Virus record (IMG/VR): IMGVR_UViG_2778261165_000022
Coordinates: 1 to 10,351 of that record
Length of the DNA: 10,351 bases
Strand: one strand, 5' to 3'
Origin: a virus
Taxonomy: Duplodnaviria; Heunggongvirae; Uroviricota; Caudoviricetes
The position numbers and the translations under genes are program-made. This document shows positions 1,369 through 10,351 of this stretch, in pieces (position 1 is the stretch's first letter; every line of letters starts with the position of its first letter). The notes under the pieces were generated by a model that did no database searches, was not told the origin of the DNA, and saw only the letters and a list, made by a program, of their open reading frames with translations.

Positions 1369-1444
1369 GCCGATATAGCTCAGTTGGTAGAGCAGCGCAT
1401 TCGTAATGCGAAGGTCGTAGGTTCGACTCCTATTATCGGCACCA
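1369..1444 (+). tRNA. thrW: tRNA-Thr (anticodon CGU), thrW-like
   Basis: 76 nt GCCGATATAGCTCAGTTGGTAGAGCAGCGCATTCGTAATGCGAAGGTCGTAGGTTCGACTCCTATTATCGGCACCA folds as a cloverleaf: acceptor stem GCCGATA/TATCGGC, D stem GCTC/GAGC, anticodon loop TTCGTAA (U33, CGT at 34-36, A37), T loop TTCGACT, discriminator A and encoded CCA. Sits directly downstream of proA, as thrW does in E. coli. Confidence 0.93.
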
Positions 1445-1460
1445 TTAAAATCAAGTAGTT
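1400..1460. other. probable prophage attL / integration junction at the tRNA 3' end
   Basis: The integrase stop codon (1459..1461) is 15 bp from the tRNA 3' end. tRNA-targeting integrases recombine within the 3' part of the tRNA and regenerate it. The second junction (attR) is outside the window, so core boundaries are not determinable. Confidence 0.4.
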
Positions 1461-2619
1461 ACCCCATATTTAAATACACCACGTTCTCCTCTTGTGCCGT
1501 ATTTGTGCCATTGCGACTTATAATCGCATCGATTTTGCTTGCGTGCTCGGTGAGATGCCCGGCTGAAAGGTGGGCGTATCTTTGAACCATTTCGAGAGTT
1601 TCCCATCCTCCCATCTCTTTAAGTGCAAGAAGAGAGACACCGGACTGAACCAGCCAGCTTGCCCAGGTATGCCTCAGATCATGGAAGCGGAAGTTACTAA
1701 TGCCTGCCCGCTTTAACGCTCCCTTCCATGCCTTGTTGCTGTCGGTTCTCATCTTCCTTACCGCTGCTGTTTTTGTTCCGTCGCTTCGGTAGGCAGGTTT
1801 GGTGTGGACAAATACCCATCTCTTATGGAGCCCCTGCTGTTTTCTTAATATCTGGCATGCGGTTTCGTTAAGAGGAACTCCGATCGCATTGCCAGCTTTT
1901 GTTTCATCAGGGTGTATCCATGCCATTTTCTTATCCAGATCGACCTGTGACCACTCAAGGTCTGTAACGTTGGAACGGCGAAGGCCTGTCGTGATTGCAA
2001 ACATGACCACAGGGAAGAAGTGAGGAGCAATTTCTGCAAACAGGCGCTTCGATTCCTCCTCTGTAAGCCATCTGATGCGTCCATTCTTAACGCGTGGTGT
2101 TGATATTTTGGGTGCCCTGTCAAGCCATCCCCATTCAACAGCCATATTGAGAATGGCGCGAAGTATTGCCAGATGCCTCGTCTTCGTTCCTTTGCTTGCA
2201 AGCTTTGGTTTATACTCCGGCACCGGATTGCCAAGTCGCAAACACCTGTCCCGGCTCATCTCCCAGTTCAGGCGATGGCGGCGGTTTTCCATCCCATCTA
2301 CCGCCTCCATTATTTTTTCTGTTGTTATGTCAGAGAGAATGGCTTCTCTGAAGTGCAACATCCAGAACGATATAATGCTCTTGTCATCATCAATGGACTT
2401 CTTATCCGATTTCTCACGCAGCCACCGTATGCAGGCTTCCTTGAATAGCTTTTTCGGTGATTCCCCGAGATTTTTTACTCTCCACGCTTCTGCTTTCAGA
2501 CGATCGTGAAGTTCTTGCGCTTGCCTTTTGTCCGATGTTTCAAGAGAGCGTCTAACTCTTGATCCATCTGGCGCGACGAAATCGCAGTGCCACGTGCCAC
2601 CGCGTAGTTTGATTGACAT
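1459..2619 (-). CDS. int: phage integrase, tyrosine recombinase (P22/lambda-like)
   Basis: 386-aa ORF with ATG at 2619 preceded by AGGAGG. C-terminal catalytic signature HDLRHTWASW ... VQRYAHL (His-x-x-Arg and catalytic Tyr). Placement next to a tRNA gene with xis overlapping upstream. Confidence 0.93.
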   Translation of the reverse strand: MSIKLRGGTWHCDFVAPDGSRVRRSLETSDKRQAQELHDRLKAEAWRVKNLGESPKKLFKEACIRWLREKSDKKSIDDDKSIISFWMLHFREAILSDITTEKIMEAVDGMENRRHRLNWEMSRDRCLRLGNPVPEYKPKLASKGTKTRHLAILRAILNMAVEWGWLDRAPKISTPRVKNGRIRWLTEEESKRLFAEIAPHFFPVVMFAITTGLRRSNVTDLEWSQVDLDKKMAWIHPDETKAGNAIGVPLNETACQILRKQQGLHKRWVFVHTKPAYRSDGTKTAAVRKMRTDSNKAWKGALKRAGISNFRFHDLRHTWASWLVQSGVSLLALKEMGGWETLEMVQRYAHLSAGHLTEHASKIDAIISRNGTNTAQEENVVYLNMG

Positions 2620-2843
2620 GCTTTAACCTCCTGCACATCAACCGCATTCACCGCGCTATTGTGTCTCACAGACTTAAGCGCCGCAATGCAGTCTGACTTG
2701 CAAATGCGATATGGGCTTTTAGGTTTATCTGGATTTATCTTTGCGGCCTGAAGTCGTCCACTTCGTATCCACTGCGTGATAGTGCCTTTGTCTACCTTCA
2801 GATACGACGCTGCCTCTTCACGAGTGAAGATTTCTTCTTCCAC
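2496..2843 (-). CDS. xis: excisionase-family DNA-binding protein
   Basis: 115-aa ORF whose N-terminus (EIFTREEAASYLKVDKGTITQWIRSGRL) looks like an excisionase/HTH_17 helix-turn-helix. Apparent GTG start at 2843 with GGAGA about 6 nt upstream. 3' end overlaps int by 124 nt, as is usual for xis-int pairs. Confidence 0.75.
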   Translation of the reverse strand: MEEEIFTREEAASYLKVDKGTITQWIRSGRLQAAKINPDKPKSPYRICKSDCIAALKSVRHNSAVNAVDVQEVKACQSNYAVARGTAISSRQMDQELDALLKHRTKGKRKNFTIV

Positions 2844-2933
2844 CTGGAATCTCCATTTATTGGATTGGTATTATTGCGGTAGGTCTGGATATCATTGAGC
2901 AATGAACAGGCCTCATCGAGTATGAGGCTGTGG

Positions 2934-3278
2934 TTAGTCCTTGCGTAGCTCGATGATTCTTCTGTAAGTCTCTGGTGCTTTGTTTCCGTGTATCTTCATT
3001 TCAGACTTCAACAGAGCAACGAGAGAATCCCATTCGTTGAGGATGCCTTTGAATGCCGGAACGCGCTTTGCAACCTTGTCGAATGAATCCCTGATTTCTG
3101 GAATCTGCTCGACAAGCGCAACGCATCGTCGGAAATCGGCTACATCATGTGGAGCGCCGAAGTGATGACCATAGATATTCTTTTTCAGTCCACATGCGAT
3201 TGAGGCAAGAGTTGCGCTACTGATGCCAACATCGCCAGTCGATTGCCATTTCAAAACCTTCATAGCCAAATCTGACAT
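2934..3278 (-). CDS. hypothetical phage protein (114 aa)
   Basis: Track ORF 2934..3305, but the first ATG lies inside a terminator hairpin. The ATG at 3278 (MSDLAMKVLKW...) is preceded by GGAGA at good spacing. No family recognised. Confidence 0.55.
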   Translation of the reverse strand: MSDLAMKVLKWQSTGDVGISSATLASIACGLKKNIYGHHFGAPHDVADFRRCVALVEQIPEIRDSFDKVAKRVPAFKGILNEWDSLVALLKSEMKIHGNKAPETYRRIIELRKD

Positions 3279-3290
3279 TTCTTGTCTCCA

Positions 3291-3312
3291 ATAAAAAACC
3301 GCCATCAGGCGG
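3291..3312 (-). terminator. intrinsic terminator (minus strand)
   Basis: Minus-strand reading GCCGCC-TGAT-GGCGG followed by TTTTTTAT. The hairpin contains the stop codon of the 55-aa ORF. Confidence 0.55.
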
Positions 3313-3472
3313 CTTGGTGTTCTTTCAGTTCTTCAATTCGAATATTGGTTACGTCTGCATGTGCTATCTGCGCCCATATCATCCAGTGGTCGTAGCAGTC
3401 GTTGATGTTCTCCGCTTCGATAACTCTGTTGAATGGCTCTCCATTCCATTCACCTGTGACTTTGAATTTCAT
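3305..3472 (-). CDS. hypothetical small protein (55 aa)
   Basis: Hand-translated ORF not in the track: MKFKVTGEWNGEPFNRVIEAENINDCYDHWMIWAQIAHADVTNIRIEELKEHQAA. ATG preceded by AGGTGA. Bracketed by intrinsic terminators on both sides. Coordinates approximate. Confidence 0.4.
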   Translation of the reverse strand: MKFKVTGEWNGEPFNRVIEAENINDCYDHWMIWAQIAHADVTNIRIEELKEHQAA

Positions 3473-3483
3473 TAAGTTTCACC

Positions 3484-3510
3484 TGTAAAAAAAGGAGCCG
3501 AAGCTCCTTT
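3484..3510 (-). terminator. intrinsic terminator (minus strand)
   Basis: Minus-strand AAAGGAGC-TTCG-GCTCCTTT followed by a T run, immediately after the TAA stop of the AntA-like gene (3515..3517). 8-bp stem with a UUCG tetraloop. Confidence 0.65.
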
Positions 3511-3514
3511 GATA

Positions 3515-4138
3515 TTAAAATTCGAATTGTCTCGCCCGAAGGCTTTTTAACATTGGTCTTGCCCGTTCGAAAATGGCGCTTGTCTGGTCAATTCGTGTTG
3601 CCTCCCTGAGCAATGCGTCTCTGTTTTTCGTCACCGTGTAGAAAGTCTCAAACGCGATGTCATACAGCTTGCTCGCGTATGATGAGTTCAGTTCCTTCAA
3701 TATCGGATACAGGCGTTTGCTGATGTCCTGTGCTTTCTCCATCTGTACCTGCATGTAGCAGAGGAGGATGATTTCCTCGTCTGTGAATTGCTGCGCTGGT
3801 TGCATGCTGCGAAGTTTCTTTTCACACTCGATGAAGTATCGGCGTATCTGGCGACCTTTTTCGTTACGCTCGACCATTGCCAGCTCTTTGGCTGTGTCGA
3901 GGGTGAGGTGATAGTCTTTGCTACGGCGATCGCCTCCTCGACCTTTGATTTCCCTATTTGGGGAAACCAAAATATAGTCCTGATTTTCAACGAATCCATA
4001 TTCAGCAATGCGTTCTGTAATCCACGATGCAAAGCGTTTACCTACCCCAAGAAAAGTATGTAAATCTCGAGCATTAACGAGAAGAGTGATTTCGTTGGCG
4101 ATAGTGCCGTTGAATACGGGGATGAGTTGACTGGTCAT
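3515..4138 (-). CDS. AntA/AntB-like antirepressor-domain protein
   Basis: 207-aa ORF, ATG at 4138 preceded by AAAGGA. The N-terminal segment ARDLHTFLGVGKRFASWITERIAEYGFVENQDY resembles the AntA/AntB antirepressor N-terminal domain as I recall it. The C-terminal half is unassigned. Confidence 0.6.
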   Translation of the reverse strand: MTSQLIPVFNGTIANEITLLVNARDLHTFLGVGKRFASWITERIAEYGFVENQDYILVSPNREIKGRGGDRRSKDYHLTLDTAKELAMVERNEKGRQIRRYFIECEKKLRSMQPAQQFTDEEIILLCYMQVQMEKAQDISKRLYPILKELNSSYASKLYDIAFETFYTVTKNRDALLREATRIDQTSAIFERARPMLKSLRARQFEF

Positions 4139-4462
4139 TTTTATGTCCTTTCGATTCGTTCAGATTACCCTGTGTTCAGCAGGGTGGTCAGGTACTTGAA
4201 CACCGTCGAAAGTTCGGCCCGCATCCTTAGCCTTGCGGCTGTTTTTCGGTATACGCGCTACCCGACCATATCTGAAAAATGGACATAAAAAATCCGCATG
4301 ACTGACGGGTGCGGTTTCCGCTTTCGAAGGTGTGTTCAGCACCATGAAGCGGAATATAGCCCCGTTAATGCGGATTTGTCAAATCATGTGGTCTTTATCT
4401 TGCTGTAAGCCGCGCCATTCGGTCTTTTCCCCCCAGATTTGGGGAAAACTATCTTGTCAAAA
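4139..4462. promoter_or_regulatory. structured intergenic region (candidate promoter/operator or small RNA locus)
   Basis: 324 bp without a convincing ORF. Two palindromes share a 7-nt centre with different arms: CCCTG-TGTTCAG-CAGGG (about 4168..4184) and GGTG-TGTTCAG-CACC (about 4327..4341). Two hairpins share the stem CCGCA/TGCGG, one followed by a T run on the plus strand (about 4219..4246), one followed by a T run on the minus strand (about 4287..4314). Inverted repeat TTTTCCCC-N8-GGGGAAAA at about 4425..4448. Confidence 0.4.
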
Positions 4463-5206
4463 TCATGCAGCCTTTCGTTCTCCTTCGATGAGTTCCTCGA
4501 TCTTGTGCACTCCCGCCTCGTTGTAGCGAAATGTCTCGACCTGCTTGTCACTGTGCGCCGATTTGTCGATGAACCACTTCCCGTACTTTTCTGTTTTGAG
4601 CATGTAGGTGTTGGCAATGCGCCCTACCTTGTTGGCTGAAATGCCAAGCATGGTGCCAACCTCCGACGCAGAGTAGTGATGTTCATCAATGACCGGAAGA
4701 GGGATTGCACTAAAGCCGACGACGGGATTAATCAGGCTGGCGGCAACGACCTGTTTAGCTTCCGGTGCGAGGTGAGGGAGGAAGTCGAAGAGGTCTTTCA
4801 TTGTGTCGACGGTCATTTTCAATGCGCGTGCCTTACGGAATTCTTCAAGGCCATCCGGTGATTTCTTCGTGGTCGTTTTTTGTTGCAACTGCTGTTGCAT
4901 TGATTCAAGTTTGTCGACCAGCGAACGACGGACGGCTTTCGACTCACGTGCGGCGACGCGCAGGGCTTGCTTGTAGGTCATCACTATAACCACCTGATCC
5001 GCTCCGCCTTTTTTCTTATCCATGGGGGTTACGAAAATTTCGTAACCCTCCCCCTCAAGCTCATCTTTGATGCGTGCAATGAAGTCGTTGTTGCGTACTT
5101 CTTTTTCGCCTCGCAGTCTCCGCGCCTCATTAACCATTTTCAACAGCATCTGGCTGTCAATTGTTGCAGCCGGAAACGAAGACTGATTTGCAATATTGTT
5201 AATCAT
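4463..5206 (-). CDS. hypothetical phage protein (247 aa), possible C-terminal HTH/KilA-C-like region
   Basis: Track ORF 4463..5263. The in-frame ATG at 5206 (MINNIANQ...) has AAGGA upstream; the ATG at 5263 has no Shine-Dalgarno. C-terminal SASEVGTMLGISANKVGRIAN looks helix-turn-helix-like. No confident family. Confidence 0.6.
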   Translation of the reverse strand: MINNIANQSSFPAATIDSQMLLKMVNEARRLRGEKEVRNNDFIARIKDELEGEGYEIFVTPMDKKKGGADQVVIVMTYKQALRVAARESKAVRRSLVDKLESMQQQLQQKTTTKKSPDGLEEFRKARALKMTVDTMKDLFDFLPHLAPEAKQVVAASLINPVVGFSAIPLPVIDEHHYSASEVGTMLGISANKVGRIANTYMLKTEKYGKWFIDKSAHSDKQVETFRYNEAGVHKIEELIEGERKAA

Positions 5207-5301
5207 GTATTCTGTCCTTTTCAGATAAAAGAAATCCCCGCGAGTGCGAGGATTGTTATTCATTGCCGATATTCACCTTTATCGCGAACACCTTTACCGG
5301 T

Positions 5302-5544
5302 TTATCTCCTTTGCATGGCGCGTAATTTTTTCAGATGGTTCTCCTGCTCTGTTTCAGCCAGAATTTGTCGGTATTCCTGGTGATCGATCCGTTCAAACAG
5401 TTCATTAAAATCGTTTATTTTTACCGACTGTGTTCGCCCATCCATTCTTCTGTACAACACAGTGTTGTTTATGCAGCGAAGAATTTTTATCGGGTAGCCG
5501 GCGCTATCGGTGTATATCTGACCACGTTGAATCAGAGCGAACAT
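5302..5544 (-). CDS. hypothetical small phage protein (80 aa)
   Basis: The track ORF begins with a TTG at 5598. The first ATG (MFALIQRGQIYTDSAG...) at 5544 has GGGGATAAAGGA upstream. No family recognised. Confidence 0.45.
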   Translation of the reverse strand: MFALIQRGQIYTDSAGYPIKILRCINNTVLYRRMDGRTQSVKINDFNELFERIDHQEYRQILAETEQENHLKKLRAMQRR

Positions 5545-5618
5545 TCCTTTATCCCCAGCGGAAAAGCGAATACAGAATAAATGCCACCGCGATTGCAACT
5601 CCTACAGCGGTGAATGCT

Positions 5619-6281
5619 TCAGGCCAATTCATCATTCACTCCCTGCGGCGGTTCTGGTAGCAGCATCCAGTACAAGGCGTTCCCTAACCACGATAAAGTG
5701 CCGTCGCTCAACTCCACGTATTCCCCTTGTACCTGTCCTGCCATATACTCGCCGTGCTTTGAATAAATTAAAACCCAATCGTCTTGAGCGGGAATTCGCT
5801 CACTACAGCTTATCCAACCATCCGGAATTACCGGAGAGTTGGTTGACGTTTCCGAGGTTTCCCGAAAATTATTGGTTGACGAATCCTTATTTTCCCGAAA
5901 GTTTCCAGCCTGAAGCATTGCGGCGCGGCAGGCGTTCCAGCCTCTCACCTCTGCAATAGCGGCAACAGCATCAACCGCGTACATGCTAAGAGGATTAGGC
6001 ATTGGTTTTTCTTCCGGTACTACTGGAACGGGTGGAGCGGCGTAGACTTCAATAATCCCATTATCAATAGGCCATTCTCCATCCTTGAGGTAGTCACTTG
6101 TGCCGTCAACTTTCTGTTCTGCAATGTGGAATGCACCTATTGGTTTTGCTTCCAGCGATACCAGTGCAATTCGTGCCAGTTCCTCCGCTTCTTCTGCTGG
6201 CAGTACAACGTTGCTACCCGGTCCGTATGTTTCGCGCCACTGCTTGATTGTCAGCAGTCGCTCTTTGGTTATAGTGGTCAT
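5619..6281 (-). CDS. DUF551-domain phage protein
   Basis: 220-aa ORF. C-terminal IPDGWISCSERIPAQDDWVLIYSKHGEYMAGQVQ...LSWLGNALYWMLLPEPP resembles the DUF551 domain common in lambdoid prophages. Its ATG overlaps the upstream gene's stop (ATGA), implying translational coupling. Confidence 0.7.
   Translation of the reverse strand: MTTITKERLLTIKQWRETYGPGSNVVLPAEEAEELARIALVSLEAKPIGAFHIAEQKVDGTSDYLKDGEWPIDNGIIEVYAAPPVPVVPEEKPMPNPLSMYAVDAVAAIAEVRGWNACRAAMLQAGNFRENKDSSTNNFRETSETSTNSPVIPDGWISCSERIPAQDDWVLIYSKHGEYMAGQVQGEYVELSDGTLSWLGNALYWMLLPEPPQGVNDELA
5839..5901. repeat. 33-bp imperfect tandem direct repeat inside the DUF551 CDS
   Basis: TTGGTTGACGTTTCCGAGGTTTCCCGAAAA and TTGGTTGACGAATCCTTATTTTCCCGAAAG, about 23/30 identical and 33 bp apart. 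Encodes the 11-aa repeat NFRENKDSSTN / NFRETSETSTN in the linker before the DUF551 domain. Confidence 0.6.
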
Positions 6282-6487
6282 TTGTTAATCCTCAAAACTT
6301 TATGCCCGGGCGCAAAAGCACGCGTTTTGTCTTTGCTTATTCGCCAGCCATCCTTGCGCGCCTCTTTTGCACAGCCAGCCCATGACGTACCGATATATTC
6401 ACCGAAGTCTGGCGTTTGATATTTACCATTTGTACACTGGCGACAATCACAGTAGAGATGCATGGTGTAACTTGCGGCAATAGCCAT
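6278..6487 (-). CDS. small Cys-rich protein (69 aa), possible zinc-binding
   Basis: Track ORF 6278..6649 begins with a TTG. The in-frame ATG at 6487 (MAIAASYTMHLYCDCRQCTNGKYQ...) has AAGGAG 7 nt upstream and lies 1 nt after the Ea22-like stop. Cys at positions 13, 15, 18 and 39. Confidence 0.5.
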   Translation of the reverse strand: MAIAASYTMHLYCDCRQCTNGKYQTPDFGEYIGTSWAGCAKEARKDGWRISKDKTRAFAPGHKVLRINK

Positions 6488-6488
6488 A

Positions 6489-7259
6489 TCACTCTCCTTT
6501 GATGCGAATACCAGCAGCGCGCTCGGCTTCACTTTGTTCCCAAAACCACTTGTGAAGCGCCATAAGCTTTTCGTCAATCGGTGCATATTTGCGATTAAAG
6601 TAGGCCTGAGCATCTTTCTCAGATTCGTCCGGTAATTCGCCAGGGCCAAACAGTGTGTTATAAATCCATGCTAGTCCGCTCTTAGCGTCGCCAGTTGCCT
6701 GCCATTCGATAATGGCAGCCTGCATGACCAGAATGTTTTTCCCGATTAATAGGTCCAGTTCTTTGTACCGGTTGCGGATGTATGCATTCTCGCTTTGTAA
6801 TTTTGCGTTGCGCTTTTCTGAGGCTTCAAGTAACGCCTGCTTATCGCGTAGCGCTTCTTCCAGTTCAGCAACATGGCATTCACTATCAATAAGGTTGTTC
6901 TCTGCTGCTTCAAGCTCAACACGCAGCTTCCCAACCGTAAGCGCAATCTCCTCGTTCTCCTGGTCGCGGCGTTTGATGTATTGCTGGTTTCTTTCCCGTT
7001 CATCCAGCAGGGCCAGCGCAACATTTGGATTAAAAGCAGCAATAAATTCAGCGTTTGCATAAGCCTGAACATCTGTTTCAACTAGGCAGTTAACATGACA
7101 TTCCGCAATCACACCACCGGGTTCTCCTTTCCATTTTTGGCAAACAAAAACTCCTGTTAAATTGCCGTGCTGGTTAACAGATGTATGCCCTACGATGTAG
7201 CTTCCTTTAGTTGCTTTCTCTGCCTTTTCACGCAGTGCCTGATAATCAATCTTGCTCAC
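6489..7259 (-). CDS. Ead/Ea22-like family protein (coiled-coil)
   Basis: 256-aa ORF, GTG start with AGGAGG 6 nt upstream. N-terminal [14 protein letters not shown] and a long Glu/Leu/Arg-rich central helix resemble the Ead/Ea22-like proteins of lambdoid prophages as I recall them. Confidence 0.65.
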
Positions 7260-7423
7260 TGGTTGCCTCCTTTGCGCAACATCGCATTCAGATATTTGTT
7301 GTCATTAACAGAACCGAAACTATTTCCCTTAAGCAATTCCTCTCTCGATGGCATTGGCTTTACGCGTTGGCGAATAATCATTTCTGCTGGAAGAATGCCG
7401 GGATTGTATGCAAGTCCTCTCAT
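7256..7423 (-). CDS. hypothetical small protein (55 aa)
   Basis: Hand-translated: [58 protein letters not shown] preceded by AGAGGA. Its stop overlaps the Ea22-like GTG start (GTGA). Coordinates approximate. Confidence 0.4.
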
Positions 7424-7439
7424 GGTAAATTCCTCTTTG

Positions 7440-7754
7440 TTAATTTATTCGTATGCCTTCTCTTTCTTCATCGAGTTTTTTTAGCTTGTATCGCATAGCT
7501 CTTACTGAATAAATTGAGCGGCAGGTTGCAATTGCTATTTCTTCTGCGGAGAACTTACCGAAAAGTGATACTTCGGCTCTTGTCCAGCGTCTTCCACGAA
7601 GTCGGCTAACAATGTCAGCGCCAATCCTTGTTGCTTTCGCCATTACTGCTTTCTCAGTCCTTTCCAGTTTTTCAGCGATAACTTCAACTGGCATTGTTGC
7701 CGCTACTTCGCGCAAGAAATCTACTTCCCATTTCTCCCAAGGAGTCTTTTTCAT
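7440..7754 (-). CDS. hypothetical protein (104 aa) with two internal HTH-like repeats
   Basis: Track ORF with ATG at 7754. Two similar segments, [32 protein letters not shown] and [32 protein letters not shown], share a W-x-x-E-x-x-L...IA pattern reminiscent of GcrA-type helix-turn-helix repeats. Confidence 0.5.
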
Positions 7755-7765
7755 AGGCGATACCG

Positions 7766-8248
7766 TTATTTGATAAGAAGTGAAGGTTTCCCAACCTTGA
7801 GTTGAGCGCCTGGGATATTTATTCCTGCTTTTAGTTGGTGCTTGATTGCCAACTTGTCGGCTTTAATTGTCGTTTCAAACTCAACGTATTCAGGAGGAAG
7901 GGCGCTTGAGTCGATGATTTCTACAGTTTCTGACGGTTTGCGGATTGTTACCTGGTGAATACCTGCTCGAATCTTTTTCTTGCCAACCATTTCAAGCGAT
8001 GACGCTATATATGATTTGATGCTGTCAATCTTATTTTGAATTACTGCGGCTCGCTCATTCAGCGACTTTGCCTCTTCCTTGAGGCGTTCAGCATAACCAG
8101 ATTCATTTTTAATAATGGCGAGAAGTTGCTCTATTTTATCGGTAAATTCTCCTTCCATGCCTTCTATTGTGTCAGCAATCATCTCTGGATCTAAATCTGA
8201 ATCCATCAATTTTGCGTATTCATTGGCTATTTCATATAGTTTGCTCAC
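7766..8248 (-). CDS. Siphovirus Gp157-like protein
   Basis: Track ORF 7766..8254 begins with a TTG. The GTG at 8248 has GGAGG 6 nt upstream. Sequence pattern (LYEIANEY..., DTIEGMEGEF, GKKKI, VTIRKPSETVEIID, LPPEYVEF, AIKHQLKAG, PGAQL) matches my recollection of the Gp157 family that often accompanies RecT. Confidence 0.65.
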   Translation of the reverse strand: MSKLYEIANEYAKLMDSDLDPEMIADTIEGMEGEFTDKIEQLLAIIKNESGYAERLKEEAKSLNERAAVIQNKIDSIKSYIASSLEMVGKKKIRAGIHQVTIRKPSETVEIIDSSALPPEYVEFETTIKADKLAIKHQLKAGINIPGAQLKVGKPSLLIK

Positions 8249-9143
8249 TGGCAACCTCCAGTTTCGCTTTGCATTCTATGTAAATGGCTTGTACGTTCTG
8301 CTGTAATTTCATTCCAGATGTTAGGCGATATGCTTCTGCAAAATATCGCTTCAAATCATCCATGTTTTCTGCCTGAGCCATTTCATCGCAAAGAAGTTGT
8401 ACTTTATCCATTATTTCCTGCTGGCGTTTCCGTTCATCTTCGCGGATATCTTCCTCTGATTTGTGCGGCATAACTGGTTCAGTCCACACACCTTCTTCTT
8501 CGTTTAGTACGTGAATAGCACTATCAAGACGTGATGCCTTAGGCCAATACTTGCTTGCACGCTTTACGACCGTCTTTCGCGCCATCTCATTCCAGTGATT
8601 TACCCATGGTCCTTTATCGCTGAATGCTGCCTTGCTTGTTTTCCTTACAGCCTCAATTTCAGCCAGACTCATCTCTTCCGTTAGATAATCACCTGCTGGC
8701 GTCTTAACTGTGCAGTAAACGCCAACGATATCACCACGATCACCGAAGGCGTTGTATTTATGGGTTGGTGCTTTATCAAGCCCGTTTGACTCATAGGTAT
8801 CGTTAGCATGAACAAGTTTTGCCTGACCCCATGAGATAACACCAGACTCCATTGCAATATGGAGCAATCCCATATAACTGATATCAAGGCAAACCATGCC
8901 GTCGCGCGGAACCAGATAAGCCAGTTTGCTGGCCGGGTTTAAGGTGATGCCGATCGCCGCAACATTGATGATGGCGTTCTGTGCGCTGGTTGGATTTGCC
9001 AGTGCCGTTTTAGCCAGGTAATCGTTTTTCTGGAAATACTGAATTGCAAACTGGCTTTCCTTAGCCCATGTCACCGTCTGTTCAGTCAATGCTCCGCAGA
9101 ATAACTGCTCTTGCTGTTTAACGAATTCAACGATATTGCTCAT
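8232..9143 (-). CDS. recT: RecT-family single-strand annealing recombinase
   Basis: 303-aa ORF, ATG at 9143 with GGAG 8 nt upstream. The motif GPWVNHWNEMARKTVVKRASKYWP closely parallels GPWVTHWEEMAKKTAIRRLFKYLP of Rac RecT. ATGA overlap with the upstream gene. Confidence 0.85.
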   Translation of the reverse strand: MSNIVEFVKQQEQLFCGALTEQTVTWAKESQFAIQYFQKNDYLAKTALANPTSAQNAIINVAAIGITLNPASKLAYLVPRDGMVCLDISYMGLLHIAMESGVISWGQAKLVHANDTYESNGLDKAPTHKYNAFGDRGDIVGVYCTVKTPAGDYLTEEMSLAEIEAVRKTSKAAFSDKGPWVNHWNEMARKTVVKRASKYWPKASRLDSAIHVLNEEEGVWTEPVMPHKSEEDIREDERKRQQEIMDKVQLLCDEMAQAENMDDLKRYFAEAYRLTSGMKLQQNVQAIYIECKAKLEVASEQTI

Positions 9144-9451
9144 GCAGCTTCTCCAAAAATGTGTCTGCGTTTGAATATTGCGAAGGCATATTCAGCCTTA
9201 ACTCTTTCGGTTATTGCATCCCAGAACCATTCAGCGGCTTTTTCCTGATAGTTACAATCATCATCTTCCAGCCAGTCGATAGCATCCTTAGTATGTTCAT
9301 CTGGTTTATATGAGCGAAGCATTTCGCTTATTGGGTCGCAACGTTTGCAGAGGCGATCAACTTCACTGTTGATTCGTTCGTAATCTTCATCAGTAAAACT
9401 TGCGATAATTTGCGATATTTCACGCTTATCATTCAGAGTCAGAATCATCAT
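9140..9451 (-). CDS. hypothetical acidic phage protein (103 aa)
   Basis: Track ORF with tandem ATG ATG at 9451 and GGAGA upstream. Rich in Asp/Glu. Translationally coupled to recT. Confidence 0.55.
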   Translation of the reverse strand: MMILTLNDKREISQIIASFTDEDYERINSEVDRLCKRCDPISEMLRSYKPDEHTKDAIDWLEDDDCNYQEKAAEWFWDAITERVKAEYAFAIFKRRHIFGEAA

Positions 9452-9532
9452 CTTTCTCCTGTTCTTTGTGCTGATTGAGCATTTTGTTCATCTGACGAAT
9501 GAATTCTTCGTCTGACCAGTTATCTGTAAAAC

Positions 9533-9685
9533 TCATTTCCTGCGATACCACGGAAGGTTGATAGCTGATTTCATCGCTTTATTTGCTTCAAGCCACATTT
9601 TTGAATCACCAATAAATCTGGCTATTACTGCTTTGTTTTGTGCAGCACGAAGCATCTGGTGATTGATGGCTATTTCATTGCGCAT
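9533..9685 (-). CDS. hypothetical small protein (50 aa)
   Basis: Hand-translated: MRNEIAINHQMLRAAQNKAVIARFIGDSKMWLEANKAMKSAINLPWYRRK. ATG preceded by GGAGG at 5 nt. Coordinates approximate. Confidence 0.4.
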   Translation of the reverse strand: MRNEIAINHQMLRAAQNKAVIARFIGDSKMWLEANKAMKSAINLPWYRRK

Positions 9686-9804
9686 AACGCCTCCAGTTGT
9701 TTCTTTGCTGCTCTGATTAATTGTTTAACTCGGCGTGATAATTCAGATTCGTGCGGGTAGAAAGCGGACATGACGCCGCTACCCGCGAGCTGAAAGTGCA
9801 TCAT
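9670..9804 (-). CDS. hypothetical small protein (44 aa)
   Basis: Track ORF 9670..9855. The in-frame ATG at 9804 (MMHFQLAGSG...) has AAGGAG about 7 nt upstream. 3' end overlaps the next ORF's start by 16 nt. Confidence 0.4.
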   Translation of the reverse strand: MMHFQLAGSGVMSAFYPHESELSRRVKQLIRAAKKQLEALCAMK

Positions 9805-9887
9805 GGGTAACTCCTTATATTTGATTGCATAACGAAAACGCCTCAAGTGAAGCATTATTGGTATGCGGTAAAGCCGCGCTTGGCGGC

Positions 9888-10225
9888 TTATTTGAAGACT
9901 TCTATGAAATCAAGAACTGATGATATTTCGTGGTTGAATGATTTTCTTTTATATCTTTCTATCGCAGAATCTACCTGGTGTTTATAGTCATCGTCGTTTG
10001 AGTATTTAACGAAGCATTCTATTGTCTCAGGCGTTACAGCCATAAGGCTCCACCAACCTTCATCAGATTGATATTCAAATCCCATGCTTTCAAGCCATCC
10101 AGCATATTTCCCTCCAGCATCTTGCCAGTGAGTCTTTTCTGCAAGAAAACTGTTAACCGTCATATGTGCATCAAGGCATTTATCCAACTGTTTACCATTA
10201 AGCAGCCATGCGCTGACAGTTGCAC
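9888..10225 (-). pseudogene. prophage early gene, probably truncated at its 5' end by IS2
   Basis: Track ORF 9888..10253 begins with a TTG inside the IS2 terminal repeat. The first native ATG (MTVNSF..., 10163) has no Shine-Dalgarno. The frame stays open up to the IS2 boundary, consistent with loss of the true N-terminus. Confidence 0.45.
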
Positions 10226-10351
10226 TAGACTGGCCCCATGAATCTCCAGACAACCAATATCACTTAAATAAGTGATAGTCTTAATACTAGTTTTTAGACT
10301 AGTCATTGGAGAGCAGATGATTGATGTCTTAGGACCGGAGAAACGCAGACG
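10226..10351 (+). mobile_element. IS2 (IS3 family) left end, partial; continues beyond the window
   Basis: TAGACTGGCCCC.TGAATCTCCAGACAACCAATATCACTTAAATAAGTGATAGTCTTAATACTAGTTTTTAGACTAGTCATTGGAG matches the IS2 left terminal region as I remember it, followed by the insC start. Confidence 0.8.
10317..10351 (+). CDS. insC: IS2 OrfA transposase (InsC), N-terminal 11 codons only
   Basis: ATG at 10317 preceded by GGAGAG. Translation MIDVLGPEKRR matches the InsC N-terminus (MIDVLGPEKRRRRTTQEK...) from memory. Confidence 0.75.
   Translation, partial: MIDVLGPEKRR

Follow-up and report, generated by a model that had tools for sequence, protein, structure and literature searches.

A lambdoid prophage recombination module in which RecT is paired with a Gp157-family protein and no exonuclease

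Introduction

Must a RecT annealase encoded next to a Gp157-family gene have an exonuclease somewhere else, or might the Gp157 protein be its partner? The question arises from the window, the whole 10,351-nucleotide stretch of DNA analysed here. A sequence-only reading of the window had taken RecT-family annealases to sit usually beside a cognate 5'-3' exonuclease and, seeing none next to this recT, had proposed that the exonuclease lies beyond an IS2 insertion, that it is absent, or that the Gp157-like protein is the functional partner. Such annealase-exonuclease pairs do exist, but as a rule the premise is overstated for lambdoid phages: a 2025 survey of their Rec modules counted 84 of 246 without a nuclease, and lists that of phage HK140 as a RecT-type annealase (SAP-4) with MuGam, and with neither nuclease nor SSB (PMC12315714). 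The combination of RecT and Gp157 without an exonuclease is real, and since HK140 and other cultured phages are already on record with it, it is not new; its presence in the window therefore changes nothing. The new point of the present analysis is that Gp157 and exonuclease genes occupy equivalent slots, and that the C-terminal tail of RecT co-varies with the partner found there.

Results

The Rec module and its prophage

The region lies within the pL operon of a lambdoid prophage that has thrW as its integration site, and is the recombination (Rec) module of that prophage. A tRNA-Thr(CGT) attachment site (1369-1444, plus strand; ARAGORN) and the prophage integrase (1459-2619, minus strand; tyrosine recombinase matches) form the prophage boundary (1369-2619), with proA adjoining. 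The context markers kil (9533-9685, minus strand; Pfam Lambda_Kil, 1.7e-20) and cIII (9670-9855, minus strand; Pfam cIII, 4.6e-30) place the module in the early-left operon. The gene string reads cIII - kil - orf40 - orf103 - recT - gp157 - orf104 - ea22, the module itself being orf103 - recT - gp157 - orf104, between kil/cIII and the ea genes. Other window ORFs specify the integrase, an excisionase, two antirepressor-like proteins, DUF4222 and DUF551 proteins, Ea22, Kil and cIII. The recT and Gp157-like genes of the earlier reading were confirmed, as was the absence of an exonuclease from view, all genes of the module being on the minus strand.

RecT (8232-9143, minus strand; 303 aa) is the predicted single-strand annealing protein of the module, of the sequence type named SAP-4 in the 2025 survey. 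It matches Pfam, PHROG and TIGR profiles, with scores above the curated cutoffs across the annealase core: PF03837 at 3.3e-32 (112 bits, cutoff 24; aa 31-216), phrog_148 at 6e-92, and TIGR00616 at 82.4 bits against 52.65. The product of gp157 (7766-8248, minus strand, GTG start; 160 aa) matches PF05565, Siphovirus Gp157, over the full profile (positions 1-162 of 162; 1.8e-38, 132.5 bits against a gathering score of 28.6), a family that all 130 diverse homologues match too, and aligns by tblastn with the founding member, gp157 of Streptococcus thermophilus phage Sfi19, at 29.6% identity over 150 aa (3e-10). Both Pfam assignments, RecT and Sipho_Gp157, are thus upheld by profile search.

The gp157 start does overlap the recT 3' end, as had been proposed, but not from position 8254, which corresponds to an in-frame TTG two codons upstream of the GTG. 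The GTG is preceded by GGAGG at 8255-8259, and RefSeq annotates the 160-aa GTG form in a twin locus; the overlap is then 17 nt (8232-8248), or 23 nt with the TTG. This junction as read from the sequence (8232-8259, minus strand), with its overlap and a Shine-Dalgarno motif within the recT 3' end, suggests translational coupling; a tight or overlapping junction of recT with its partner is common to all related loci. Upstream, the stop of orf103 (9140-9451, minus strand; phrog_3486, 3.7e-59) overlaps the recT start (ATGA). Its 103-aa product is the small acidic protein noted earlier (pI 4.65; 24 acidic and 15 basic residues) and has no match in Pfam or NCBIfam.

The block has counterparts of about 98% nucleotide identity in the complete genomes of the cultured phages HK140, mEpX1, Kapi1, Gally, Dewey and Louie. 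The RecT core (aa 1-218) is identical to that of HK140 RecT, and the C-terminal tail is 97.6% identical. In the neighbourhood survey that had been proposed as a check, RecT lies upstream of Gp157 in all 79 close viral loci, with orf103 directly upstream of recT in 75 of them; RecT holds the same position in nine of ten loci whose Gp157 shares only about 45% identity with that of the window.

No exonuclease beyond the IS2 insertion

The neighbours of recT are gp157 and orf103, not a 5'-3' exonuclease gene, and the window ORFs scanned gave no match to nuclease families or to the SSB family; an SSB is likewise not annotated anywhere in the HK140 genome. The pairing might nevertheless be an artefact of a damaged element, its exonuclease lying outside the window, past IS2, or having been lost as the prophage decayed. 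The operon is indeed damaged upstream of the module. The left end of IS2 (IS3 family), with the terminal sequence TAGACTGGCCCC, was read at 10226-10351, the window end, on the plus strand; the insertion site is a phrog_8967 gene, whose truncation by IS2 is seen in the ORF at 9888-10253, where the PHROG match lacks the first 20 profile positions. Because IS2 interrupts the pL operon upstream, expression of the module on induction is doubtful. The twin locus is 100% identical over 7440-10351, IS2 junction included, and RefSeq annotates an IS3-family transposase at the IS2 site; past it come small hypothetical genes, a second IS, the cI/cro/cII region and replication genes. The second IS stands close to the N region.

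Both insertions would fit a history of decay, but the twin locus is nuclease-free beyond IS2, and intact, plaque-forming phages carry the identical module in a complete pL operon, again with no nuclease. The operon of uninterrupted relatives runs N - sieB - ral - cIII - orf103 - recT - gp157 - ... - xis - int and is nuclease-free; no exonuclease is annotated in this operon in the cultured phages inspected, and no nuclease among all 82 features of the whole 40.7-kb HK140 genome, which the literature also classes as nuclease-less (PMC12315714). We regard loss or displacement of an exonuclease as extremely improbable. The suggestion that it lies beyond IS2 fails, and the simpler one, that it is absent, is supported.

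The RecT tail changes with the partner

The gene that overlaps the recT stop encodes an exonuclease in Vibrio phage 1.198.A, Aeromonas phage 51, Pseudoalteromonas phage SL25 and TL-2011c, and Gp157 in KO-TP1, HK639, HK140 and Dewey. The C-terminal region of Red-beta is partner-specific, working with lambda Exo. The corresponding part of the window RecT, an acidic tail (aa 219-303; 8235-8489, minus strand) outside the Pfam RecT domain, would likewise be a partner-specific domain. In every diverged RecT with Gp157 downstream the tail is 46-52% identical to that of the window RecT, whereas RecTs with an exonuclease downstream have equally similar cores (66-76%) and unrelated tails (5-13% identity). 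The window-type tail accompanies a downstream Gp157 in 249 loci (146 unique RecTs) and an unrelated tail accompanies a downstream exonuclease in ten; there are no crossovers among these 259 informative loci, which represent few independent lineages, three diverged groups linked to Gp157 and about four linked to an exonuclease. Physical linkage may account for part of the association. That the tail switches with the partner, and that Gp157 occupies the exonuclease slot, suggests that Gp157 is the cognate partner of RecT; the earlier proposal of Gp157 as functional partner is to this extent plausible, on indirect grounds. Gp157 is not strictly a substitute for the exonuclease, since in one metagenomic contig (L007) the gene just upstream of a Gp157 is a PHROG 'exonuclease'.

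A protein lodged exactly in the exonuclease slot, and predicted to be translationally coupled to recT, could itself be a novel 5'-3' exonuclease or a nuclease-recruiting subunit that directly replaces Exo or RecE. The AF2 model of Gp157 (pLDDT 96) argues otherwise: it consists of one long helix of 68 residues (21-88) and a small C-terminal domain, with no PD-(D/E)XK, DEDD or HNH features. The near-invariant residues among the 130 diverse homologues are L4, Y5, K38, Y80, K132, G142 and G147; no acidic or histidine residue that could serve in catalysis is conserved among them, and there is no match to a nuclease family. The L007 contig, where an exonuclease accompanies Gp157, also speaks against direct replacement. 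Judged by sequence and model, Gp157 is not a nuclease, and we consider a nuclease or nuclease-recruiting role very unlikely.

Gp157 and Mu Gam

To call the function of Gp157 unknown is no longer up to date, since PHROG, RefSeq and the 2025 paper all assign it to Mu Gam-like end protection or anti-RecBCD function, the match to phrog_253, 'Mu Gam-like end protection', being at 1.1e-54. Phage Mu Gam is a Ku-like protein of double-stranded DNA ends that blocks RecBCD. In the 2025 survey MuGam is said to bind DNA ends and to inhibit every RecBCD activity (PMC12315714). Sequence-level kinship of the two families is seen in the Pfam profile Phage_Mu_Gam (PF07352), which 30 of the 130 diverse Gp157 representatives also match; one of the 30, P0252, does so above threshold (6e-7, 29.9 bits against 28.3), its residues 28-158 aligning to profile positions 6-147 of 149. 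The homology is at superfamily level, transitive through other family members, the window Gp157 itself having no match to PF07352 even at E<=1. When its profile was aligned by hhalign to thin Mu Gam alignments, with or without the 2P2U fragment, the matches were collinear at 5-12% probability, and a thin Mu Gam HMM gave weak collinear matches to Gp157.

The AF2 models of Gp157 and Mu Gam (160 and 174 aa) share a helix of about 60-68 residues, a beta hairpin and a small alpha/beta domain. Sequence and profile searches of Gp157 against PDB chains returned coiled-coil noise only; Foldseek with the Gp157 model found no PDB match and, in BFVD, other Gp157 proteins only, but the control Mu Gam model also missed 2P2U, which is found by sequence search from Mu Gam. 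Both genes also adjoin a gene for a phrog_323 'D5-like' small protein. They differ in the company they keep: Mu Gam has no annealase as partner, whereas Gp157 is nearly always next to RecT, Sak4 or Erf. Gp157 is probably a distant relative in the Mu Gam superfamily, to judge from the family-level cross-matches and the matching order of secondary-structure elements.

Gp157 could instead be a general replication or recombination accessory, for example a coiled-coil factor acting at origins or forks, whose adjacency to RecT is mere membership of the same early module; the origin-derived resistance phenotype of Sfi21 is a hint of this, and the Pfam family description is itself derived from a resistance phenotype. 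Gp157 flanks Sak4 in 76 Firmicute-type loci, there as the first gene of a replication cassette that continues with Sak4, helicase, DUF669 and primase genes; ZF40 has Gp157 without any annealase, and the link of the window protein itself to Mu Gam is weak. Against this, a bona fide Gp157 member matches Phage_Mu_Gam over its full length and above threshold, Gp157 genes are found beside Erf and Sak4 genes, with Mu gam interchangeable in the position upstream of erf and sak4 (PMC8093625), and the association of RecT tail and partner is perfect. A general accessory role is a minority possibility, though one that carries appreciable weight.

Discussion

The reading that we favour, as somewhat the most probable, is that the window holds an exonuclease-less Rec module in which Gp157 acts as a Mu Gam-like partner that binds ends, blocks RecBCD and hands the ends to RecT. 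Gp157, as a dimeric coiled-coil protein, would bind double-stranded DNA ends and so keep RecBCD off them, and would then pass the end to RecT by contact with its partner-specific C-terminal tail. Resection by host enzymes, RecBCD excepted, would supply RecT with single-stranded DNA, or else replication forks and rolling-circle tails would. Functionally the module belongs with P22, the prototype of the class 'anti-RecBCD + annealase, no nuclease, no SSB': the window has an early-left cluster with an annealase and a predicted anti-RecBCD-type gene, and it has neither nuclease nor SSB genes. The literature searched yielded no biochemistry on any Gp157 protein.

The anti-RecBCD component could be orf103 rather than Gp157, leaving Gp157 purely as a RecT loader or mediator. 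The slot of orf103 holds a lambda-Gam-like gene in Dewey and GamL in KO-TP1, HK639 and TL-2011c; the orf103 product is acidic and aligns locally, over 23 residues, with the Gam-like protein of Dewey (1e-4 in a pairwise comparison). This match is short and uncorroborated, orf103 matches no Pfam or NCBIfam family, and in SEN22 an orf103 homologue precedes a DUF3799 nuclease. We think a Gam-like role for orf103 improbable. Dewey, KO-TP1 and HK639 have a lambda-Gam-like or GamL gene as well as Gp157, which would be unexpected if the role of Gp157 were purely a redundant anti-RecBCD one. More tentatively, Gp157 could be a dedicated annealase loader that binds DNA ends, docks on the RecT tail (on Sak4 or Erf elsewhere) and delivers the annealase to double-strand ends. 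If so, there would be an exonuclease-independent route of single-strand annealing, with a Ku-like protein taking the place of the nuclease as cognate partner.

Among known systems the closest is HK140 (also mEpX1, Kapi1 and Gally), with the same four genes in the same order and pL position, no nuclease or SSB, and the P22 functional class; the window element is a thrW prophage with IS2 inserted in its pL operon, and otherwise does not differ in any way that matters. The lambda Red (Gam-Bet-Exo) and Rac RecET systems share with the window the operon position, an annealase with a translationally coupled partner, sometimes a Gam-like gene upstream, and an annealase C-terminal region that appears partner-specific; they differ in their defining exonuclease, the window partner not being a nuclease. 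Like the Erf-Abc1-Abc2-Arf system of P22, the window combines an annealase with a putative anti-RecBCD function and no phage nuclease, leaving resection to the host, and the small ORF that follows kil resembles Arf at its N terminus. The annealase is RecT and not Erf, however, the candidate end binder is not homologous to the RecC-binding Abc2, and orf104 has no detectable relation to Abc1. The Sfi21-type replication modules of Firmicute phages (gp157 - Sak4 - helicase - DUF669 - primase) also place a Gp157-family gene beside a recombinase, but the recombinase is the RecA-like Sak4, Gp157 lies upstream of it and not downstream, and an SSB-like DUF669 protein and replication genes are present.

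In Gally, a deletion of recT-gam-abc1 with a KanR cassette in its place still allowed virions and lysogens to form (PMC9928086), so that the module is dispensable under those conditions. The Gp157 family is large (8,248 cluster representatives at 50% identity; 605 phage records) and nearly always adjoins a phage recombinase. The partnership of the RecT tail with Gp157, if real, would account for the nuclease-free working of about a third of lambdoid Rec modules and could make compact two-gene recombineering cassettes possible; Gp157 would also add a class to the end-binding proteins that Gabija and other defence systems probably sense (PMC12407980).

The last gene of the module, orf104 (7440-7754, minus strand; phrog_323/11492, 'D5-like regulator'), encodes a basic protein of 104 aa (pI 9.9) with two HTH-like repeats. 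Its annotation in Gally as P22 Abc1 was rejected, tblastn giving no P22 match and pairwise BLASTP nothing. It lies downstream of Gp157 in 77 of 78 close loci and in all ten of those with a Gp157 of about 45% identity, and resembles Mu gp9, the product of the gene immediately upstream of Mu gam (BLASTP, 5e-5).

Gene content of the window

The window opens with proA (1-1254, +) and tRNA-Thr(CGT) (1369-1444, +), to the right of which lies a lambdoid prophage's left arm, transcribed from the minus strand: integrase (1459-2619), excisionase (2496-2843), two antirepressor-like genes (AntA/P22_AR_C, 3515-4138; phrog_1726, 4463-5263), a DUF4222 gene (5302-5598), a DUF551 gene (5619-6281), an Ea22-like gene (6489-7259), the basic 104-aa orf104 (7440-7754), the Gp157-like gene (7766-8248), recT (8232-9143), the acidic 103-aa orf103 (9140-9451), a 40-aa ORF (9429-9551), kil (9533-9685), cIII (9670-9855) and a phrog_8967 gene (9888-10253), its 5' end replaced by the left end of IS2 (10226-10351), which runs to the window end.

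The sequence-only reading of this region, a recT followed by a Gp157-like gene that starts within its 3' end and preceded by a small acidic gene, was borne out. Profile searches supported both assignments: RecT scores far over all curated cutoffs, and Gp157 gives a full-length match to Pfam Sipho_Gp157 (132.5 bits, cutoff 28.6) and reaches the founding Sfi19 gp157 directly by tblastn (3e-10). Gp157 most likely starts at the GTG at 8248, which has GGAGG six bases ahead of it and is the start given by RefSeq in an identical locus; from there it overlaps recT by 17 nt. The orf103 product has a pI of 4.65, and its stop codon overlaps the recT start.

Absence of an exonuclease

That RecT usually sits beside an exonuclease, the starting premise of that reading, is overstated for lambdoid phages. 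A 2025 survey in Genome Research covered 325 of them and defined Rec modules by SSB, nuclease, annealase and anti-RecBCD functions; of the 246 Enterobacteriales panel phages in which a Rec module could be recognized, 84 have no nuclease, and the "anti-RecBCD + annealase only" class numbers 46 (PMC12315714). RecT with Gp157 and without exonuclease is an arrangement already known; interest is limited to the biochemistry of the very large Gp157 family and to the tail/partner association described below. A Gally prophage in which three genes were swapped for a KanR cassette (ΔrecT-gam-abc1::KanR) retains virion production and lysogenisation (PMC9928086).

An exonuclease might still have been hidden past IS2, as had been proposed, or lost. 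Both possibilities are countered by a chicken E. coli chromosome 100% identical to window 7440-10351, IS2 junction included, and by complete cultured phages (HK140, mEpX1, Kapi1, Gally, Dewey, Louie) carrying the recT-gp157 block at ~98% nucleotide identity. Past IS2 the E. coli locus contains nothing but small hypotheticals, another IS, the cI/cro/cII region and replication genes, with no exonuclease; in the phages inspected the gene order of the uninterrupted operon is N - sieB - ral - cIII - orf103 - recT - gp157 - orf104 - ea genes - xis - int. Inspection of all 82 annotated features of HK140 revealed NinB/Orf and RusA as the only other recombination functions, and among the larger unannotated proteins, all DUF551 or antirepressor-like, none is a nuclease. 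The exonuclease is genuinely absent from this Rec module.

The RecT tail follows the partner gene

The proposed survey of Gp157-RecT neighbourhoods, once run, showed RecT immediately upstream of Gp157 in 79/79 close viral-contig loci, orf103 upstream of RecT in 75/79 and orf104 downstream of Gp157 in 77/78. Of ten loci with Gp157 ~45% identical, nine have RecT upstream and all have orf104 downstream. At 76 Firmicute-type loci Gp157 instead comes first in a cassette that continues with Sak4 (AAA_24), helicase, DUF669 and primase. With 8,248 representatives at 50% identity and 605 phage records, the family is very large.

RecTs whose cores (aa 1-218) are 66-80% identical to that of the window form two groups defined by the gene overlapping the recT stop codon: an exonuclease, then SSB, in Vibrio phage 1.198.A, Aeromonas phage 51, Pseudoalteromonas phage SL25 and TL-2011c; Gp157 in KO-TP1, HK639, HK140, Dewey and the 45%-identity group. 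The C-terminal 85 residues of RecT (aa 219-303) track this partner gene, not the core, being 46-52% identical among Gp157-linked RecTs, with a conserved GMKLQQNVQAIY motif, and 5-13% identical in exonuclease-linked ones. Among all loci fetched, the window-type tail is paired with Gp157 in 249 (146 distinct RecT sequences) and a different tail with an exonuclease in 10, with no crossovers, an association to be read in the light of the physical adjacency of tail and downstream gene and the few independent lineages. [quoted passage not shown]

The idea that Gp157 is the functional partner of RecT gains plausibility from its position in the exonuclease slot and from the tail/partner association. 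C-terminal domains of annealases are known to bind the cognate exonuclease, as Red-beta does lambda Exo. On the simplest reading, the RecT tail would bind Gp157, a putative cognate partner in the exonuclease's place.

In the Stx2a phage Stx2a_JNE110649, RecT (2450-3352) has a core 70% identical and unrelated sequence after about residue 230, and downstream of it is neither exonuclease nor Gp157; this Rec module looks disrupted.

Gp157 as a probable distant relative of Mu Gam

An AlphaFold model of Gp157 (130 diverse homologues; pLDDT 96) consists of a short helix, one 68-residue helix, a beta hairpin and a small C-terminal domain. The near-invariant residues among these homologues (L4, Y5, K38, Y80, K132, G142, G147) do not suggest a metal-dependent nuclease signature. 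"Mu Gam-like end protection" is the PHROG and RefSeq label for gp157, and a 2021 survey of Firmicute annealases found gp157-like, Mu-gam-like, DUF1351 and DUF2483 genes sharing a position beside erf and sak4, "implying analogous function" (PMC8093625). The window Gp157 has no scoring match to Pfam Phage_Mu_Gam; 30 of 130 family representatives do match, one of them over the gathering threshold, and because its alignment spans profile positions 6-147 of 149 the match is more than coiled-coil. Our model of Mu Gam has the same order of secondary-structure elements as that of Gp157. Foldseek linked neither model to the Gam-like structure 2P2U or to Ku; sequence search does link Mu Gam to 2P2U, so the Foldseek miss carries no weight for or against the relationship. 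We consider a distant kinship of Gp157 with Mu Gam probable. Given what is established for Mu Gam (PMC12315714, PMC12407980), its putative activity would most likely be DNA-end binding and exclusion of RecBCD. Pfam DUF7307 (Pam3 gp33-like) is matched by 38/130 representatives (best 1e-5), which suggests that Gp157, Mu Gam and DUF7307 may belong to a wider superfamily.

In Dewey, KO-TP1 and HK639, Gp157 co-occurs with a lambda-Gam-like or GamL gene located upstream of recT; in one metagenomic phage the gene directly upstream of gp157 encodes an exonuclease; and ZF40 has Gp157 without annealase. An end-binding accessory with several possible partners therefore fits better than strict replacement of Gam or Exo.

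Neighbouring genes

The orf104 product (7440-7754) has two internal HTH-like repeats and belongs to phrog_323, with weak similarity to Mu gp9 (BLASTP 5e-5), encoded immediately upstream of Mu gam (phage Mu locus, 5482-6325); a "small D5-like + Gam-like" pair thus recurs, in opposite order, in Mu and the window. It has no detectable relation to P22 Abc1, its annotation in Gally.

In related modules the slot of orf103 (9140-9451) is filled by lambda-Gam-like or GamL genes. Over 23 residues its product aligns locally with the Gam-like protein of Dewey (48% identity, pairwise E 1e-4). Three versions of it that have diverged (26-38% identity) all end (Y/F)(D/G)E(V/A)A, with an overlap at the recT start. 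The comparison took in related loci L003 (6710-7135) and L176 (2201-2482). From sequence, orf103 could encode an unrecognised anti-RecBCD protein.

In Salmonella phage SEN22 (3001-5013) a DUF3799 PD-(D/E)XK nuclease and a 189-aa phrog_11517 protein replace recT and gp157, flanked as in the window (7440-9451) by orf104 and orf103, 91% identical, so that two genes have been swapped cleanly as a cassette.

The 40-aa ORF that follows kil (9429-9551) aligns with positions 1-20 of phrog_2123, whose annotation is "recombinase", and with the N-terminal end of P22 Arf (WSDEEFI here, FSDEEFI in Arf); it could be either an Arf-like cofactor or what is left of an earlier Erf-type module.

IS2 and the prophage backbone

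IS2 (10226-10351) interrupts the phrog_8967 gene (9888-10253), which lies between pL/N and the Rec module. The insertion probably compromises recT-gp157 expression, making transcription from pL polar or abolishing it, and the prophage may therefore be defective. Window 2878-10351 is 99.6-100% identical, exact IS2 junction included, to a prophage in NZ_CP148483.1 (1757488-1763055), which has a different integrase and adjoins mdtABC, not proA/thrW. The right 7.5 kb being common to both, the IS2-bearing early region therefore occurs in two backbones or integration sites.
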